Part shown: one piece after another, positions 5,494-16,077 of the stretch | Layout of the letters: every line of letters starts with the position of its first letter | Numbering within the stretch: the first letter of the stretch is position 1 | Source of the DNA: a virus | Taxonomy: Duplodnaviria > Heunggongvirae > Uroviricota > Caudoviricetes | Length of the DNA: 16,614 nucleotides | Virus record (IMG/VR): IMGVR_UViG_2778261297_000002 | Direction: 5' to 3' (one strand) | Translations under genes and position numbers: made by a program | The notes under the pieces: generated by a model | Told to the model about the DNA's origin: nothing | Database searches by the model: none | The model's input: the letters and a program-made list of their open reading frames with translations, nothing else

Positions 5494-5855
5494 CCGATAT
5501 TTTTGAAGTGATAGGCCCATTGTTCCGCAAACTGACCGAAACCTGTATTGCTCACCAGATAGCGGAAACCGGTTCGGCAACCTTGCTGGTGGAAAGCGAT
5601 AAGTATATGGCCCGCTATCGCTTCACGCTGGAGCCGCGCGTAACTGAAAACGTATTGATGAAATATATGATTTTTGGCTGCTTTGAAGAATTCGGGCGCG
5701 ATGAGGGGTTAAGGCGTTTGCGGGATATTCTGCTGACCTGCTTTACCGACGATGGCGATATTAACGAAATGGGGTTGCAGATAGTGAAAAGCTGCCACCT
5801 TGAATACCTGCATGAAGATTTGGAAGCGGATCTTTCCAATAAGGTGCTGCACTGA
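5490..5855 (+). CDS. Hypothetical protein (121 aa)
   Basis: ATGA overlap at 5490-5493; GGAGG at 5476-5480. Confidence 0.6.
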   Translation: MTDIFEVIGPLFRKLTETCIAHQIAETGSATLLVESDKYMARYRFTLEPRVTENVLMKYMIFGCFEEFGRDEGLRRLRDILLTCFTDDGDINEMGLQIVKSCHLEYLHEDLEADLSNKVLH

Positions 5856-7987
5856 TGAAGATGAAAAACGCCCCAAACATTAAGTGTCTGCCAAAGGACA
5901 AGTTTACTGAGGCGATTATTTTTGCGGGGGAAGATGCTTATTCACACGCGCAGCACTGGATCGAGAGCGAGGGGAAAAGGGCGGGGGATGATGTGCCGCC
6001 TGTGTATCTGGGGAAAAAGCAGCTGGAGGAGCTTGAAAGGCTGAATATCATCGATCAGGGGCGTCGTTGCGTACGCGTGATTAGAGCTGGCGAGCTTTCC
6101 GAAATGCAGATAAGCACTATCGCAACCAAACTGGCGCTGGCGGATGTGAAAGAGGCCCGGCTGTTTAATGGCATGTTTGAGCCTCAGCCGAAGGAGAACT
6201 GGACGGATGTACTTCCACGGCTCAGGGAAGATGCCGAGCGTGGGGAAAGTATTGTGGTAAATCTGCCTGTGAAAAAAAGGGAGCCAAAGCCTGAACCGGG
6301 TGATGAACTGAAACCCCGCGTAGAGAGCCGTAACGATGGCCTGTACTGGATCACGCCAAAGGTGGATAAGGACAGCGGAGAAATAATCAATAACGAAACG
6401 TGGCTGTGTTCGCCGCTTGAGGTGGTGGGGTCCGGTAGTGACGGGGCCGAGCGCTATCTCGTTTTGCGCTGGCGTTCGCCACGTGGCCATGAAGATATTA
6501 CCAGGGCGATCCCCTGTGCTGATATCGGTGAGCGTGACGGCTGGCGCTCTCTAAAGGCTGGTGGGGTAAACGTAACGACTAAAAGTACATTCCGGGCAAT
6601 TCTTGCCGACTGGCTACAGCAATGTGGTGCAGGGCAGGAATGGATTATTAGCCATACCACCGGCTGGCATCACGGCGCATACATCATGCCAGATGGTGAA
6701 GTTATCGGTGATCCGGAAATGCCTATTCTCTTTAACGGTCGCAGCGCTGCATCTTCCGGTTATGCCGTGGCTGGAACTGCTGAGAGTTGGCGGGATTCAG
6801 TGGCATATCTGGCAGGAGGCAACCCATCGATGATGCTGGGTGTGGCTGCGGCATTGTCTGCGCCGCTGATCGGGCTGGTGGGCGCTGATGGCTTCGGCGT
6901 CCATTTGTTCGAACAGTCCAGCGCCGGTAAGACTACCACCGCAAATATTGCGAGCAGTATTTGGGGCGAGCCCGACGCTTTGAGGTTGACCTGGTACGGT
7001 ACCGCGCTTGGTATTGCTAACGAGGCAGAGGCGCATAACGACAGCCTGTTACCACTTGATGAGGTAGGGCAGGGCAGCAGTGCTAAAGATGTCGCCACGT
7101 CTGCTTACACTTTGTTTAACGGGGCTGGGAAGTTGCAGGGGGCTAAAGAGGGTGGCAACCGGGAGCTAAAGCGCTGGCGAACTGTTGCGATCAGTACCGG
7201 GGAAATGGATATTGAAACATTCCTGGCTGCTGGTGGAATTAGGGTGAAAGCTGGGCAGCTGGTGCGCCTGCTGAATATCCCCATGGAGAAATCCACGGCC
7301 TTTAACGGGCTGGCTAACGGAAAGGCCCACGCCGATGCACTGAAAGAGTCATGGATTGATAACCACGGCGCAGCAGGGCGTGAGTGGGTAAAATGGCTGG
7401 CAACCCACCAGCAGGAGGCTAAACAGGCTGTGCGGGATGCGCAGACGCGCTGGCGCAGTCTTATTCCGGCTGATTATGGTGAACAGGTTCATCGTGTGGC
7501 TGAGCGCTTCGCCATTCTTGAGGCTGCGCTGGTAACTGGTTCGCCGATAACTGGCTGGAGTGAACAAGCCAGCCGGGATGCTATTCAGCATAGCTTCAAT
7601 GCCTGGGTAAAAGAATTCGGAACAGGTAACAAGGAGCACCAGCAGATCATCGAGCAGTGCGAGGCCTTTCTGAACGCGCATGGTATGAGCCGCTATGCTC
7701 CGCTGCCATACTGCCCGTCAGATATGCCAATTCGTGATATGGCTGGATACCGCGAAAGGGGCAAGCATGATGATTCGCCGATGGTGTTTTATACCTTCCC
7801 TTCTGCGTTCGAAAAAGAGATAGCGCAGGGGTTCAATGCGAAGCAGTTCGCCAGAGTTCTGTCTGAATCTGGAATGTTGACACCCCCAGCAAGCGGCAGG
7901 GGATACCAGCGGAAATCACCGCGTATCGATGGGCGTCAGATTAATGTTTACGTCATTCAGTACCAGCAGGAGGGAACCGAAGAATAA
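5855..7987 (+). CDS. Phage/satellite primase-helicase-like replication protein (P4 alpha-like, P-loop NTPase)
   Basis: 710 aa; Walker A-like FEQSSAGKTTTANIASSIWG in the central region; TGATG overlap with the upstream gene; followed directly by the iteron array. Confidence 0.8.
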   Translation: MKMKNAPNIKCLPKDKFTEAIIFAGEDAYSHAQHWIESEGKRAGDDVPPVYLGKKQLEELERLNIIDQGRRCVRVIRAGELSEMQISTIATKLALADVKEARLFNGMFEPQPKENWTDVLPRLREDAERGESIVVNLPVKKREPKPEPGDELKPRVESRNDGLYWITPKVDKDSGEIINNETWLCSPLEVVGSGSDGAERYLVLRWRSPRGHEDITRAIPCADIGERDGWRSLKAGGVNVTTKSTFRAILADWLQQCGAGQEWIISHTTGWHHGAYIMPDGEVIGDPEMPILFNGRSAASSGYAVAGTAESWRDSVAYLAGGNPSMMLGVAAALSAPLIGLVGADGFGVHLFEQSSAGKTTTANIASSIWGEPDALRLTWYGTALGIANEAEAHNDSLLPLDEVGQGSSAKDVATSAYTLFNGAGKLQGAKEGGNRELKRWRTVAISTGEMDIETFLAAGGIRVKAGQLVRLLNIPMEKSTAFNGLANGKAHADALKESWIDNHGAAGREWVKWLATHQQEAKQAVRDAQTRWRSLIPADYGEQVHRVAERFAILEAALVTGSPITGWSEQASRDAIQHSFNAWVKEFGTGNKEHQQIIEQCEAFLNAHGMSRYAPLPYCPSDMPIRDMAGYRERGKHDDSPMVFYTFPSAFEKEIAQGFNAKQFARVLSESGMLTPPASGRGYQRKSPRIDGRQINVYVIQYQQEGTEE

Positions 7988-9686: not shown

Positions 9687-10064
9687 ATGAAAAAAAATAG
9701 CCAACAATCAAGATCCGGATGGGGTGGCAAGCGGAAAGGCGCAGGCGCACCGTTGGGCAATACTAATGCCGTCAAACATGGCGAACGCAGTAGGCGGGCA
9801 TTCTTCCCGTTTGAGGGGGGCGAGGCGCTTTCTCCGCTGGTGCGAAATCGTGCAAGAAACCTCATGATGGCTGAGAGATACGGGCTATTACTGGCGACTA
9901 ATCCGACGCCGGGAACAGAAGAATGGCGCGAGATGACATTGATTAACGGACTCATGGGGCTACATGCCGACAGAATCGCACGGCTTGAGCTGAGTTTAGC
10001 GAGATCCGTTTCAATGCAAGCAAGGCGGGATCTGCGAAGGGTTAAAAAAAGCGGCGCATGTTAG
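9687..10064 (+). CDS. Basic N-terminus protein, possible terminase small subunit-like / packaging protein (125 aa)
   Basis: N-terminal GWGGKRKGAGAPLGNTNAVKHG Gly/Lys-rich motif reminiscent of some phage TerS N-termini; function unverified. Confidence 0.4.
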   Translation: MKKNSQQSRSGWGGKRKGAGAPLGNTNAVKHGERSRRAFFPFEGGEALSPLVRNRARNLMMAERYGLLLATNPTPGTEEWREMTLINGLMGLHADRIARLELSLARSVSMQARRDLRRVKKSGAC

Positions 10065-10450: not shown

Positions 10451-10636
10451 ATGACACCACGCGAAATAGCTTTATTGACCACCGCCAAACTGGAGCACGA
10501 AGGCCACCAGCTAACCCCGGCAGATCAACGGGAGATAGAACGCTCAGTTAATGCCGATATAGCCCGGCGTGACAAATTCCGCGAAATGATGCGATCACCT
10601 GCCTACCAGTGGAAGAAGCCAGCGCCGCGCAGGTAG
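10451..10636 (+). CDS. Small protein (61 aa), paralog of 14520-14711
   Basis: C-terminus MMRSPAYQWKKPAPRR parallels MTAPAYQWKRPDNPRR in the second copy, with similarity across the whole length; weak RBS. Confidence 0.45.
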   Translation: MTPREIALLTTAKLEHEGHQLTPADQREIERSVNADIARRDKFREMMRSPAYQWKKPAPRR

Positions 10637-10756: not shown

Positions 10757-11299
10757 ATGTACCAGCTAAAGATAACCATCCGAGACAGCAAGCCACCTAT
10801 ATGGCGGCGTGTGCTGGTTCCAGAGCAAATCCCCTTTAGTGAACTTCACGCGGTGATCCAGTTGGCTTTTGGCTGGAATGACGAACACCTGTATATGTTC
10901 GAGAAAGGGCGTAAAGGTGATCCCGGTAGCGAGTATCGCGTATGGGGTGAGGATGAAAGCATGGGTAATGCGGCAATCACACCACTATGGGCAGCGCTCC
11001 AGAATGAGGGTGACAGGCTGGTTTACACGTATGACTTTGGCGACTGGTGGGATTGCCTTATTGTGCTGGAGAAGCAAACACACGATACGAGCAATCAGCC
11101 CATTAGCTGCCTGCGTGGGAAAGGCACCACCCCGGCGGAAAACTCAGGCGGCTTGCATGGTTACAATGAATTGCTATTACAGGCCAGAGAGTCTGATAAT
11201 CCTGAGCAGGCCGAGATCCACAATTTCCTGATGCTGGATATTGAACGCCGGGTTTACGACCTGAGCCGCATCAACGACAGATTGCAGGCTATTAACTGA
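10757..11299 (+). CDS. pRiA4b ORF-3-like family protein (180 aa)
   Basis: YQLKITIRDSKPPIWRRVLVP...ELHAVIQLAFGWNDEHLYMF...YTYDFGDWWDCLIVLE matches the conserved pattern of that family (recognised from memory). Confidence 0.65.
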   Translation: MYQLKITIRDSKPPIWRRVLVPEQIPFSELHAVIQLAFGWNDEHLYMFEKGRKGDPGSEYRVWGEDESMGNAAITPLWAALQNEGDRLVYTYDFGDWWDCLIVLEKQTHDTSNQPISCLRGKGTTPAENSGGLHGYNELLLQARESDNPEQAEIHNFLMLDIERRVYDLSRINDRLQAIN

Positions 11300-11651
11300 C
11301 CCGCATGTATTCACCTGATATTGCGTTATCAGCGCCGCCACTATCTCGCACAACGGCACACTGTCCCGGTAAACCGTAGCGCACGACCGTTGCGCTGGTT
11401 TCACCGCCGCGCCGTACCTGACGGGATTCATACACTGTCATTCGCTCAAGCAGTCCACCGGCAACCATGCTTTCGAGCGTGCGGCTGGTTGATTCGAGCT
11501 GGTATCGTTTATCGAACGATCCCATGCCGTGAAGCAGGTAGGCCACGCCCGACACATCGAGTGGCGGAGCGCCGATCTCACCCGATACCCACTCGAGGTT
11601 ATCCGGCTCAAAGTAACTGAGTATCTCTTTTTTGCGGTTGGTCATTCTCAT
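11292..11651 (-). CDS. Winged-helix-like DNA-binding regulator, copy A (119 aa)
   Basis: ILSYFEPDNLEWVSGEIGAPPLDVSGVAYLL suggests a MarR/PadR-like wHTH; AAGGAA upstream; palindromic operator just upstream; paralog at 14708-15067. Confidence 0.65.
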   Translation of the reverse strand: MRMTNRKKEILSYFEPDNLEWVSGEIGAPPLDVSGVAYLLHGMGSFDKRYQLESTSRTLESMVAGGLLERMTVYESRQVRRGGETSATVVRYGLPGQCAVVRDSGGADNAISGEYMRVS

Positions 11652-12079: not shown

Positions 12080-12856
12080 ATGCCGTTAATGAAATTACCC
12101 ACATGGGCGCTAACAGCGTTCGGTACGAAAGGTAAGAAAAAACAGCCCCAACTATCTGAGGAAAACCCATCCATGTTTGATTTCTCGCATCTGTCAGGCA
12201 AAACCAAAACGAAAGGCGAGTCCGATAACGGTAATGAGCCACTGAAACAGGATAGTGACGATATTCAGGTATATCGCCCAAACAAGCACAGTCGTGGTCA
12301 CAATGTCGCGGTGTCTACTGAGGCTAAGAACAACCCGGTTCTGGCTGTTCGTTTGCTGAAAGAAACAAAGCTTTCATCGAAGAAAATAAAGCAGCAACTG
12401 GCATCGTCGCCGATGGCGCTTTCTGTGTTTACCCAGAAATTTATGGAAGAGAACGATCCGACCTGGGAGTTTCAGGACGACGAAGAGAAAGCCCGAACGG
12501 CGCTGATGTTTTCAACGCAGAACCGTGACGCAAATGGTTACAGCGCTGCCCAGAGTAGCGCTATCAAGGCATTGAAAAAAATGGAAGAGCCTCTGACAGA
12601 GGATGAGGTCAAGGCATTAGCCAACATGACATTGAAGATGCAAAACGAGTACGACCCGATGTCACCTGACAATGTCAATGCTCGCCGCATAGCGGATGAG
12701 GAGTACCGGGAGGAAGTGGCACAGGCCACAGCACGCCGCAATGATCGTATCCGGGCATCTGGTGTGAGCCTGCCGGGAGATACCCGTCGCGTGAATGGCA
12801 AGATTGAAGGGCCAGCAGGCGAAGCCGAACGCCTTAAATCACAGGTTTCTCTCTGA
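12080..12856 (+). CDS. Hypothetical protein (258 aa), paralog of 12865-13359
   Basis: AAGGAG 7 nt upstream. Shares EAKNNPVLAVRLL and DPTWEF...DANGYSAAQSSAIKALKKMEEPLTEDEV with the downstream gene. Confidence 0.7.
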   Translation: MPLMKLPTWALTAFGTKGKKKQPQLSEENPSMFDFSHLSGKTKTKGESDNGNEPLKQDSDDIQVYRPNKHSRGHNVAVSTEAKNNPVLAVRLLKETKLSSKKIKQQLASSPMALSVFTQKFMEENDPTWEFQDDEEKARTALMFSTQNRDANGYSAAQSSAIKALKKMEEPLTEDEVKALANMTLKMQNEYDPMSPDNVNARRIADEEYREEVAQATARRNDRIRASGVSLPGDTRRVNGKIEGPAGEAERLKSQVSL

Positions 12857-12864
12857 GAGGTGCG

Positions 12865-13359
12865 GTGGTGAGCATTATGAACTTTCAGCATCTCAATCCG
12901 CCGCAGCCCGATGCGCAGGCATATGGCTTTTCCGGGCGCCGTATGCAGCGCATGCATCGACTTCAGCAGTCTGTTGAAGACGAGCAACCCCCTGAACGTC
13001 GCCATTCTGATGCACATCTGATCGCGGTGAGAAAAGAGGCCAAACAAAACCCGATACAGGCACTTCATCTTATCGCTGAAGGGATACCACACCAGCGTGC
13101 CATCGCCTTACTGCAGGGCAGCGTTCGGCAGCTCAGTCGTTTTACCCGTCGGGCCATGGAGAAAGCCTATCCTGGCTGGGAACTCCTTGATGCCGAAGAC
13201 CAGAACATGGCGGCATTCCAGCACAGCATGATTAACGGCGACACCAACGGCTATCGGGCTGGTTTTAACGCTGCTCTGTCGGCGCTGGAGAAGTTTGTAG
13301 AGCCAGTTACGTTTGACGATATCGTGAATAGCGTTAATTCGCTGGTGGAGGAAGTATGA
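12865..13359 (+). CDS. Hypothetical protein (about 160 aa), paralog of 12080-12856
   Basis: EAKQNPIQALHLI and YPGWEL...DTNGYRAGFNAALSALEKFVEPVTFDDI parallel the upstream gene. Start ambiguous (GTG 12865, GTG 12868 or ATG 12877). Confidence 0.65.
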   Translation: MVSIMNFQHLNPPQPDAQAYGFSGRRMQRMHRLQQSVEDEQPPERRHSDAHLIAVRKEAKQNPIQALHLIAEGIPHQRAIALLQGSVRQLSRFTRRAMEKAYPGWELLDAEDQNMAAFQHSMINGDTNGYRAGFNAALSALEKFVEPVTFDDIVNSVNSLVEEV

Positions 13360-13535
13360 GTAATTCATTCGATTTTGAGCTGGTTGCTGATGACAGGGCC
13401 AGTGCTGCCATTGACGACATTAATGAGGCTATTCGCAATCTTGGACCGCATCTGGAGAAGACGCGGGAAAGCCTCAGGCTGGGCGGCCTTCCGCCGTCGC
13501 CTTACAAAAATGGGTCCTTCCTGAGCCTTTTGTAA
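13356..13535 (+). CDS. Small acidic protein (59 aa), last gene of operon
   Basis: ATGA overlap with the upstream stop at 13356-13359; hand translation MSNSFDFELVADDRASAAIDDINEAIRNLGPHLEKTRESLRLGGLPPSPYKNGSFLSLL. Confidence 0.4.
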   Translation: MSNSFDFELVADDRASAAIDDINEAIRNLGPHLEKTRESLRLGGLPPSPYKNGSFLSLL

Positions 13536-13586
13536 GGCACGGGCATTGCGCGCCGCGGTGTTTTCCTAGCTACAGGTTTTGAATTT

Positions 13587-13792
13587 GATTGACACTTTAC
13601 ACTAAGGTTTTTCCGGTTGCTGGGTTGTTAACTCCCTTGAGCGGCAAGGGATTACCGGGAATAACCGCCGATCCTGATTGACAGTTAGATTGACACTTTC
13701 TGCCTGAAAAGTGTCAACCGGACAGAAAAAGTGTCAAGTAGCTGGCGCTTTACAGTTTGATTGACAGTTTCCCGCCGGTGGGTTGACACATT
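13587..13792. repeat. Array of 7 TTGACA(C/G) motifs in both orientations upstream of the 13826 gene
   Basis: Forward copies at 13589, 13678, 13690, 13761, 13783; inverted at 13711 and 13731. Includes the palindrome TTGACACTTT-ctgcctg-AAAGTGTCAA. Confidence 0.6.
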
Positions 13793-13825
13793 GCCTGCCA
13801 ATGATAATTACCCAGGAGAAAAAAT

Positions 13826-14413
13826 ATGTCGCTGATGAGTGTGAGTCAGTACGCTAAACACGCAGGGCTAAGTCGTCAGGCCCTCTACAACTGGGAGGCT
13901 AAGCAAGGTTTCCCCGCACGAGTGGACGGCAAGATTGACCAACTGGCCTGTGATGCCTACCTGGCCCGATACCGCAGCGCCAGTGACCCGCGCACGAAGA
14001 ATGCCAGGGGGAAAACCAAATCTGCTCCAGCCGGTCAGGCGCAGGGGAGTGCGCTGGTGGAAATGAGTGTTGCGGAGATTAAGCGCATCATAGTGTCAGG
14101 TGCCGGTAAGGTGGCCGGGATGGATCCGGACGAACGAGCCCAACTGGCTGCAAAGGCCGTAGAGCTGTTTGTAAGCGAAGGGCCTTATAACCCTCCTGTA
14201 ACGTTCGGCGGCTACCGGCTGTCGATTGTTGAAACGCCAGATGTTGAAATCGGGCAGATCATCGCGGGCGGCGCGTTCGGCCTGTCTGCATATGATGTGA
14301 TTTACGAGTGCCGGGATTACACCCTGACTCTCATGAGCGATGAAACCGAAGAAACAGCCATGCGGAGAGTGATCCCTTCGTTGCTGTATGCCCTGGCCGA
14401 CGATACCGACTAA
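13826..14413 (+). CDS. HTH-containing protein (195 aa), N-terminal MerR/Nu1-like helix-turn-helix
   Basis: N-terminus SVSQYAKHAGLSRQALYNWEAKQGFP looks like a phage HTH; AGGAG 7 nt upstream; strong terminator downstream. Confidence 0.65.
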   Translation: MSLMSVSQYAKHAGLSRQALYNWEAKQGFPARVDGKIDQLACDAYLARYRSASDPRTKNARGKTKSAPAGQAQGSALVEMSVAEIKRIIVSGAGKVAGMDPDERAQLAAKAVELFVSEGPYNPPVTFGGYRLSIVETPDVEIGQIIAGGAFGLSAYDVIYECRDYTLTLMSDETEETAMRRVIPSLLYALADDTD

Positions 14414-14443
14414 AGCAAAGTGTGCCAGCGGGCTCCTGTTATT

Positions 14444-14469
14444 CCAGCCCTCCGGGGCTGGCTTTTTAT
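14444..14469 (+). terminator. Rho-independent terminator
   Basis: CCAGCCC-tccg-GGGCTGG followed by CTTTTTAT. Confidence 0.65.
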
Positions 14470-14519
14470 AACGATGCTCAGGGCGTAGCCGGTGAGCCTA
14501 TAGAGCAGGAAGATATAGC

Positions 14520-14711
14520 GTGTTAAAACAGAAGAAAATCGAGGCGGTAATTGAAGAGCTGGCCCGCCTGCAGGGGAATGAGCTGAATGCCACCGATATG
14601 CTGGAGTTACGTTGCAGGGTTGCGGGAACGCTCGTTGCTAAAGAACGGCACCGCCGGAGGATGACGGCACCAGCCTACCAGTGGAAGAGGCCAGATAATC
14701 CACGTCGTTAA
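14520..14711 (+). CDS. Small protein (63 aa), paralog of 10451-10636
   Basis: GTG start with AGGA 8 nt upstream; shares the C-terminal PAYQWK(K/R)P...PRR motif; stop overlaps the convergent regulator B. Confidence 0.45.
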   Translation: MLKQKKIEAVIEELARLQGNELNATDMLELRCRVAGTLVAKERHRRRMTAPAYQWKRPDNPRR

Positions 14712-15067
14712 ACGACCCGCACATATTCGCCTTCTATCGTGCCGTCTGCACCTCCCGTATCGCGTACCACTGAAACGGTACCCGGCAGGCCGTAACGGAC
14801 AACGGTAGCGGTCGTCTCGCCGCCCATAACGATACTCCGCGCCTCCCTGCTCCGGTACCTCTCCAGCAACCCATCTTTCACCATTGCTTCCAGCGTTCGT
14901 CTGGTGGATTCGAGCCAGTGCCGGTTGTCTTCGAGGCCTGTCCCATACAGCAGGTACGCCACGCCGGATACATCAAGGGGAGGTGCGCCGATCTCACCCG
15001 TCACCCAGTCGCGGTTATCCGGTTCGAAGTAGCTGAGTATCGTCTTTTTGCGGCTGGTTAGTCTCAT
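14708..15067 (-). CDS. Winged-helix-like DNA-binding regulator, copy B (119 aa from ATG 15067)
   Basis: MRLTSRKKTILSYFEPDNRDWVTGEIGAPPLDVSGVAYLL aligns along its length with copy A; AAGGA upstream of ATG 15067 (the six-frame ORF extends to 15103). Confidence 0.65.
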   Translation of the reverse strand: MRLTSRKKTILSYFEPDNRDWVTGEIGAPPLDVSGVAYLLYGTGLEDNRHWLESTRRTLEAMVKDGLLERYRSREARSIVMGGETTATVVRYGLPGTVSVVRDTGGADGTIEGEYVRVV

Positions 15068-15080
15068 AGTGGGAGATTCC

Positions 15081-15106
15081 TTATTGTATGACAGTGCTAT
15101 CATACA
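15081..15106. promoter_or_regulatory. Palindromic putative operator of regulator B
   Basis: TTATTGTATGAcagtgcTATCATACA with arms TGTATGA / TCATACA; same position relative to the start as operator A. Confidence 0.4.
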
Positions 15107-15905: not shown

Positions 15906-16077
15906 ACCCCTACAATATTTCCTTGCTATAATCCCCAGCTCTTTGGAATGTGCTCATGCTTATGCGTGATTTCGGCTCTGTGCGATAATCCGTATATCAA
16001 TCGGTGTATCAATATTTACTGAATTGCATAGTGTGAGATTGAATTTAACTGATTAAAATCAGTGAGATATATAGATT

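Follow-up and report, generated by a model that had tools for sequence, protein, structure and literature searches.

We analyzed an open reading frame (ORF) at positions 13826-14413 on the plus strand of a 16,614-nt stretch of Escherichia coli DNA (IMG/VR virus record IMGVR_UViG_2778261297_000002; hereafter the window), and conclude that its 195-amino-acid product is probably the packaging-specificity factor of a satellite of the phage-inducible chromosomal island (PICI) type, with the segment 13512-13789 as the satellite's cos site. All positions are window coordinates unless a locus (L-number) is given. Judging from the sequence, the cos site looks like a composite of a lambda-type cosQ-cosN block copied from a resident prophage and a set of repeats private to the island, and the 195-aa protein probably steers the packaging enzyme of that prophage onto the island. 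An initial annotation of the window had offered two roles for this ORF, a packaging-redirection factor or a regulator. Repeats at the cosB position, a helix-turn-helix (HTH) domain homologous to the small terminase subunit (TerS), covariation between protein and DNA, a satellite-only distribution, and the lack of an adjacent large terminase subunit (TerL) favor the first of these and make the second less credible. Three features had escaped the initial annotation, namely the cosQ/cosN block (13512-13570), the fact that the protein does not belong to the Rpp family of packaging redirectors, and the spread of its own family over gamma- and beta-proteobacteria.

The ORF is real. It is preceded on the plus strand by a ribosome-binding site read directly from the sequence (AGGAG, 13814-13818, 7 nt before the ATG) and followed by a putative intrinsic terminator of consensus form (14444-14469, plus strand), consisting of the hairpin CCAGCCC-TCCG-GGGCTGG (14444-14461) and the T run CTTTTTAT; with the repeats upstream, it forms the self-contained unit that had initially been proposed. 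Codons 1-60 (13826-14005) encode a DNA-binding winged-HTH domain of the TerS (Nu1) type, codons 61-74 (14006-14047) a basic linker that is variable in alignments and modeled with low confidence (predicted local distance difference test, pLDDT, below 50), and codons 75-195 with the stop codon (14048-14413) a family-specific alpha/beta domain that is conserved in Burkholderiales relatives and carries the motifs ERAxLAAK, TFGGYRL, AGGAFGL, CR, and LLYxL. An AlphaFold model built with a 62-sequence alignment (mean pLDDT 80.5) predicts the winged HTH at residues 1-50, the disordered basic linker at 61-74, and the alpha/beta domain at 78-190, with block-mean pLDDT values of 81-96 over residues 81-190. 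When we compared the family with genuine TerS proteins by hhalign, 66 N-terminal columns aligned (probability 99.7, E = 6e-27) and the C-terminal part remained unaligned. Consistent with this, PHROG 57 ('terminase small subunit') matches residues 1-73 (E = 1.9e-9); this profile covers genuine TerS proteins over their full length (residues 1-190) and the satellite family over the first ~55-105 residues only. The TerS of the candidate helper prophage is 42% identical over 64 residues, and that of phage contig L002 (P0119) is 49% identical over 97 residues. The recognition helix comprises residues 17-27, and the specificity residue within it, Q18, is aligned to the residue with which the lambda recognition helix begins. 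These profile and structure comparisons, which the initial annotation had suggested, bear out its Nu1-like N-terminus as a Nu1/MerR-type winged HTH in residues 1-60. The remaining body is as unrecognised as it was then: the C-terminal domain has no match in PDB, BFVD, Pfam, PHROGs, or NCBIfam, and a hidden Markov model of it, run against every ORF of the helper prophage and of three phage loci, hit nothing better than E = 6. By homology, the protein is thus the TerS DNA-binding head of this phage clade fused to an unrelated, satellite-specific C-terminal domain.

The cos site lies upstream of the gene. A cosQ-like element, GGGTCCTTCC (13512-13521, plus strand), matches lambda GGGTCCTTTCC and is followed by a putative cosN cohesive-end segment, GGGCATTGCGCG (13541-13552, plus strand), that aligns to the lambda cos junction (...CAC/GGGCATTGCGCG versus ...ACG/GGGCGGCGACCT in lambda, with CCGCGGTGTTTTCC versus CGCGGGTTTTCGC as the next flank). 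Because of this alignment, we place the putative top-strand nick at 13540/13541, which gives a cosQ-to-nick distance of 29 nt as compared to 30 nt in lambda. The cosQ-like element occurs in 15 out of 16 satellite loci analyzed (it was not found in the Providencia locus L022) and also upstream of TerS in the phages L002, L003, and L023. Positions 13502-13581 are identical in 74 out of 80 nucleotides to the DNA upstream of TerS and the GpA-type TerL in the E. coli prophage L003, and from ~13582 onward the identity is at chance level. In L003-type E. coli prophages, the cos block is followed by a PHROG-57 TerS and then by a GpA-type TerL, gpW, and portal; the block likewise precedes terS-terL in phage contig L002 and terS-terL-gpW-portal in Citrobacter phage phiNP. 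The E. coli satellite and prophage share the putative cosN core GGGCATTGCGCGCCGCG letter for letter with one Rhodanobacteraceae and one Variovorax genome, an identity across bacterial classes that suggests unusually strong conservation of the nicking site. In loci L006 and L009, the putative cosN core is found ~80-100 bp upstream of the homologue. A 10-bp perfect inverted repeat (CCTTACAAAA at 13500-13509 and TTTTGTAAGG at 13528-13537) flanks the cosQ-like element; it is partial in the E. coli prophage and does not occur in Serratia or Pectobacterium.

Between this block and the gene lie nine sites of the form TT[GT]ACA[CG], seven on the plus and two on the minus strand. The longer motif TTGACASWTT occurs six times in the window, with 0.12 copies expected, and all six fall within 13589-13792. 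The first two sites, the overlapping repeats TTGACAC and TTTACAC (13589-13602, plus strand), are located at bp 49-62 from the putative left end, and lambda R3 is located at bp 50-65 (PMC9026076); we therefore consider the pair equivalent to R3 and the array as occupying the cosB position. Seven further R-type repeats extend over 13678-13789, starting at 13678, 13690, 13749, 13761, and 13783 on the plus strand and lying at 13711-13717 and 13731-13737 on the minus strand. Across a set of 16 satellite loci, we found that the repeat and the recognition helix covary in every case, the first residue of the helix changing with the third base of the repeat. Specifically, 11 loci combine the helix (S/T)RQALY with 6-12 TTGACA repeats and zero TTCACA, and the other five combine SRR[AS]FY with 6-7 TTCACA repeats and zero TTGACA. 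By overall sequence identity, the two types are intermixed and therefore do not simply represent two separate clades. The same pairing of helix and repeat can be followed outside this set: the phage TerS of L002 (helix SRTAFY) has mainly TTTACA repeats, the helper-type prophage TerS (DRKTIG) has seven TGTCCCA repeats, and Burkholderiales/Xanthomonadales relatives with the helix SRKxVT have GGTAACA repeats in three loci. From this covariation, we infer that the winged-HTH head reads the repeats.

TTGACA is also the sigma-70 -35 hexamer, and the protein might instead simply regulate transcription, as a factor or autorepressor of the MerR/AlpA/Xis type, with the repeats as operators or a promoter cluster and no role in packaging. 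Its fold is common to MerR, AlpA, and excisionases (Foldseek), there are weak, sub-threshold HTH matches in Pfam (NCBIfam gave no match) and a phrog_66 'excisionase/regulator' match (E = 1.3e-4), and the repeats stand directly before the gene's own start codon. Foldseek against the PDB with an earlier, weaker model returned weak MerR-type matches only. However, the resemblance of the DNA-binding domain is specifically to TerS (E = 6e-27 against TerS profiles), the size of the protein and its extra domain speak against a MerR, AlpA, or Xis type, and the repeats come after a conserved cosQ-cosN block, spaced from it as cosB should be. Moreover, the TTCACA repeat of five loci is not a -35 consensus, a scan of 13300-14800 found no promoter, and the island has an AlpA of its own (2285-2569) and its attR 2.2 kb away. 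We thus regard a purely regulatory function as decidedly improbable, and a canonical transcription factor unrelated to packaging, the outcome that would have spoken against the initial annotation, is not what we found. The 195-aa protein may nevertheless have a regulatory side-role.

The setting of the gene agrees with a packaging function in a satellite. The window represents an island that is inserted between gcd and hpt in E. coli (the Klebsiella relative L020 likewise adjoins hpt) and encodes a tyrosine integrase (int, 1-1227), AlpA (2285-2569), a DUF927 primase-helicase (5855-7987), AntA, PerC, and PRiA4_ORF3. It is bounded by a 19-bp direct repeat, TATCAATCGGTGTATCAAT, that forms attL directly upstream of int and attR at 15995-16013 (the copy in L001 is at 2023-2041), and the 195-aa protein gene is located near the right-hand (attR) end. 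The island has no capsid or terminase genes, and a tape-measure protein (TMP) fragment provides the only structural-gene match. All features by which PICIs are recognized are present (integrase, AlpA, primase/replicase, att repeats, a length of ~10-20 kb, and no capsid or terminase genes), and in gene content and att repeats this is, as predicted from sequence, the make-up of a PICI-type phage satellite.

A candidate helper occurs in the same strains. The full module is found in three E. coli genomes (1368KP, EC09, and 2022CK-00450), and all three also carry the L003-type cos, TerS, and TerL at 99.9% identity at a separate locus, even though L003-type prophages occur in just 47-60 of 5426 genomes (~1%). 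The prophage in 1368KP looks complete: its early genes are lambdoid, its head module is of the lambda type, and its tail is a contractile one of the Mu/SfV type. It has homologues of just two island ORFs, that of the 195-aa protein, through its head, and the 59-aa ORF 13356-13535. The helper TerS is WP_000210383.1 and the helper TerL WP_016239512.1. We propose that, upon helper induction, the island would excise, replicate, and produce the 195-aa protein, several copies of which would bind the repeats through their winged HTH. The C-terminal domain would then join these copies together and dock the lambda-type terminase of the helper, allowing the helper TerL to nick the shared cosN and package the 16-kb island into helper virions. 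Since the helper cosB uses GTCCCA, the helper TerS should not be able to read the island repeats, and any terminase drawn to the island would be lost to the phage, so that some interference with the helper is expected.

Interference could also be the sole purpose of the protein, which would then bind the helper terminase or the helper cos as a decoy and block phage packaging as a defense, without promoting packaging of the island. Packaging inhibitors are common in satellites, for example Ppi and the Gpi of PICI-like elements (PLEs) (bioRxiv 10.1101/2024.04.22.590561), and the C-terminal domain is not TerS-like. A decoy, however, needs neither private repeats beside a functional-looking cos in cis nor strict covariation of protein and DNA, and the island repeats differ from those of the helper, which argues against competition at the helper cosB. 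Such a decoy therefore appears very unlikely to us. As to how a packaging-specificity factor would couple to the terminase, we lean slightly towards direct or TerS-independent docking over a bridge through the helper TerS. Direct docking is plausible because the cosB array is complete, with one repeat type and no helper-type sites, because the protein is as long as a TerS, and because conservation across bacterial classes extends to both the C-terminal domain and cosN. A bridge is also plausible, given the homology between the DNA-binding domains and the dimerisation of those of the lambda type (PMC6739421). More tentatively, and with the odds somewhat against it, the C-terminal domain could be a new fold that docks the helper's GpA-type TerL directly; the family would then amount to a satellite invention, spread over gamma- and beta-proteobacteria, that fully replaces the small terminase with a non-homologous protein, and a code of one residue and one base (Q18-G, R18-C, T18-T) would let satellites diversify private cosB specificities.

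Homologues of the 195-aa protein are widespread. We found 119 close homologues in Escherichia, Klebsiella, Serratia, Yersinia, Pectobacterium, Morganella, Providencia, and Salmonella, nearly all of them unnamed or 'hypothetical' and one labeled a MerR-type regulator by one source. An exhaustive profile search and a second indexed search added distant, full-length relatives (195-234 aa, ~25-30% identity, with the same C-terminal motifs) in Burkholderia, Paraburkholderia, Ralstonia, Bordetella, Variovorax, and Rhodanobacteraceae. An integrase is close to the gene in three out of five distant loci examined, and in six out of seven a GGGTCC-type cosQ and a cosN-like segment lie upstream, followed by the locus's own short repeats; two of these six share the identical cosN core GGGCATTGCGCGCCGCG. 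In Serratia, Pectobacterium, Salmonella, Klebsiella, and Providencia, the homologue is located downstream of a primase or replicative ATPase and after a conserved pair of genes of unknown function, with a gap of 270-450 bp before its start; in the Enterobacter locus, the local arrangement is alike and the remaining island is not. No TerL was found in the window, nor beside the gene in the loci examined (six enterobacterial, five distant), whereas the phage loci L002, L003, and L023 do have TerL next to TerS. Small genes downstream of the homologues were considered as terL remnants and rejected, having no similarity to GpA-type TerL. A tblastn search of 50,697 phage genomes with the 195-aa protein gave no match, and literature searches by accession, cohesive-end sequence, and topic retrieved no description of this protein family or this cos.

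To our knowledge, Rpp is the one protein family currently known to redirect helper packaging in Gram-negative cos-type satellites. Rpp proteins ('redirecting phage packaging'; RppA/B/C) act in EcCICFT073-type PICIs (PMC6739421, PMC9026076; structures PDB 6HLK and 6HN7). Like Rpp, the 195-aa protein has an N-terminal winged HTH of the lambda TerS fold and is encoded directly downstream of a lambda-type cos in an int-alpA-pri satellite, with cosQ and cosN helper-like and cosB not, and the expected outcome is the same, namely a helper terminase redirected to the island. It might then be an Rpp family member acting as RppA/C do, whose dimer binds the helper TerS by mimicry of its DNA-binding domain to form a heterocomplex that reads the island cosB. 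Yet we found no sequence homology to Rpp: phmmer against the PDB returned no hit at all at E ≤ 10, the best profile comparison reached E = 0.85 over 32 residues, and PDB sequence searches (with the single protein and two profiles) gave only a non-significant HTH match to RppC. The protein is longer (195 aa versus 139-154 aa), and its C-terminal half is predicted to be an alpha/beta domain of ~115 residues and unmatched fold rather than the three-helix coiled-coil dimeriser of Rpp. Whereas its DNA-binding domain is a true homologue of that of helper-clade TerS, the RppC domain shares 25% identity with lambda TerS across 51 superposed positions. In addition, Rpp islands were reported without repeated R sequences (PMC9026076), in contrast to the nine R-type repeats here, and the island cosB has no helper-type GTCCCA sites for a mixed dimer. 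None of 16 other island ORFs tested (a set that excluded int, alpA, antA, primase, and PRiA4) encodes an RppC-like protein. On sequence, length, and modeled C-terminal architecture, the 195-aa protein is not an Rpp homologue, and we consider it unlikely to be a member of that family that works as RppA/C do.

The protein also differs from the other packaging components that it resembles. With lambda-like TerS (gpNu1, and the PHROG 57 TerS of SfV/phiNP-like prophages) it shares the homologous N-terminal domain, including a DPRxxNA segment after helix 3, a similar overall length, and the order cosQ-cosN-R repeats before the gene at lambda-like spacing. However, an unrelated domain replaces the central oligomerisation and C-terminal TerL-binding regions, no terL follows, and the gene occurs in satellites only. 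Lacking TerS's C-terminal half and an adjacent terL, it is not a genuine TerS. The TerS of Staphylococcus aureus pathogenicity islands (SaPIs) and the PLE packaging specifiers GpsA/GpsB present the same principle, in which the satellite's own DNA-recognition component lets the helper TerL package satellite DNA; but SaPI TerS is homologous to TerS over its full length and serves pac (headful) packaging, as opposed to a cos system with a chimeric protein, and GpsA/GpsB are unrelated to the 195-aa protein and work with a TerL inhibitor.

Next to the cos site lies a tape-measure gene remnant (13356-13535, plus strand; 59 aa; phrog_2276, E = 9.8e-10), whose 3' end extends into cosQ and whose first 44 residues are 70% identical to the TMP of the co-resident prophage. 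At the same position, the Klebsiella relative L020 has a full 624-aa TMP homologue with 57% identity to the prophage TMP. Satellite relatives keep full tape-measure homologues of 538-624 aa with a transglycosylase domain next to cos, and the tail genes beside cos are at 3818-5692 in L020, 7738-9354 in L015, and 8111-9630 in L013; a Serratia relative has a tail fibre and a tail-fibre assembly chaperone at this spot instead. Satellites with helper-type tail genes near cos may alter helper tails. The truncation in the window could be taken to mean that the locus is a relic without present function, what is left of a degraded prophage at its cos-terS end; alternatively, the repeats, which occur in both orientations as iterons can, could be replication iterons bound by an initiator. 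Against a relic stand a family that is intact and conserved in hundreds of genomes of two proteobacterial classes (gamma and beta), a constant cos-gene synteny without terL, and a C-terminal domain that is absent from phages; against iterons stands the separate DUF927 primase-helicase, 6 kb off in the island. Both accounts thus seem extremely improbable.

Several observations weigh against a packaging-specificity factor and should be kept in view. Binding to DNA, cleavage at cos, transfer, and any contact with TerS or TerL are inferred throughout, and the cohesive ends are assigned by homology only, as the libraries searched contained no mapped-end phage with this cos. No convincing IHF site turned up in the stretch that separates the first repeat pair from the cluster, and repeats directly upstream of a gene are also compatible with autoregulation. 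The coupling step is weakened by a C-terminal domain unlike any known TerL- or TerS-binding module. The three strains that carry both island and prophage may be related and would then represent fewer than three independent events, and a fourth genome has a diverged copy of the module without the prophage. Finally, the window island has lost its tape-measure gene and one strain has an insertion sequence (IS) fragment, so the window island may be decaying. The strain in question is 1368KP, in which the otherwise near-identical island (L001) contains an IS5-family (ISKpn26) transposase fragment at 12351-12914 that is missing at window position ~10280.

Other parts of the island show internal duplication. 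A pair of small genes at 10451-10636 and 11292-11651 (minus strand) recurs at 14520-14711 and 14708-15103 (minus strand), with 37% and 70% protein identity between the copies; the second copy starts right after the terminator of the 195-aa protein gene, and the 63-aa protein of the pair matches PHROG 7271, where no function is assigned. An origin from tandem satellites was considered for this duplication and dropped, since just two att copies exist and the island is therefore a single unit. The ORFs 12080-12856 and 12865-13359 encode paralogous proteins (39% identity over 109 aa) that have no match in Pfam, PHROGs, or NCBIfam. Upstream of cos, each enterobacterial relative examined has a pair of genes of unknown function, of ~200-240 aa and 130-200 aa, similar in size to these paralogues. 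In addition, a 125-aa ORF at 9687-10064 contains the motif GAPLGNTNAVKHG and weakly matches a different type of small terminase (phrog_1889, E = 4e-3; NF040601, E = 9e-4), and may be a second packaging-related remnant in the island.

Overall, this locus points to a second solution to the redirection of helper packaging, unrelated to Rpp, in which the head of the helper's small terminase has been retuned to a private repeat and set on a new domain. The same arrangement extends from E. coli and Klebsiella to Burkholderia and Ralstonia. The covariation of residue and base predicts that a Q18R swap would switch binding from TTGACA to TTCACA, and the presence of a candidate helper prophage in the same sequenced strains makes the system directly testable. 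Such a test would inform both the anchoring of lambda-type terminases at cos and the spread of pathogenicity and defense islands.
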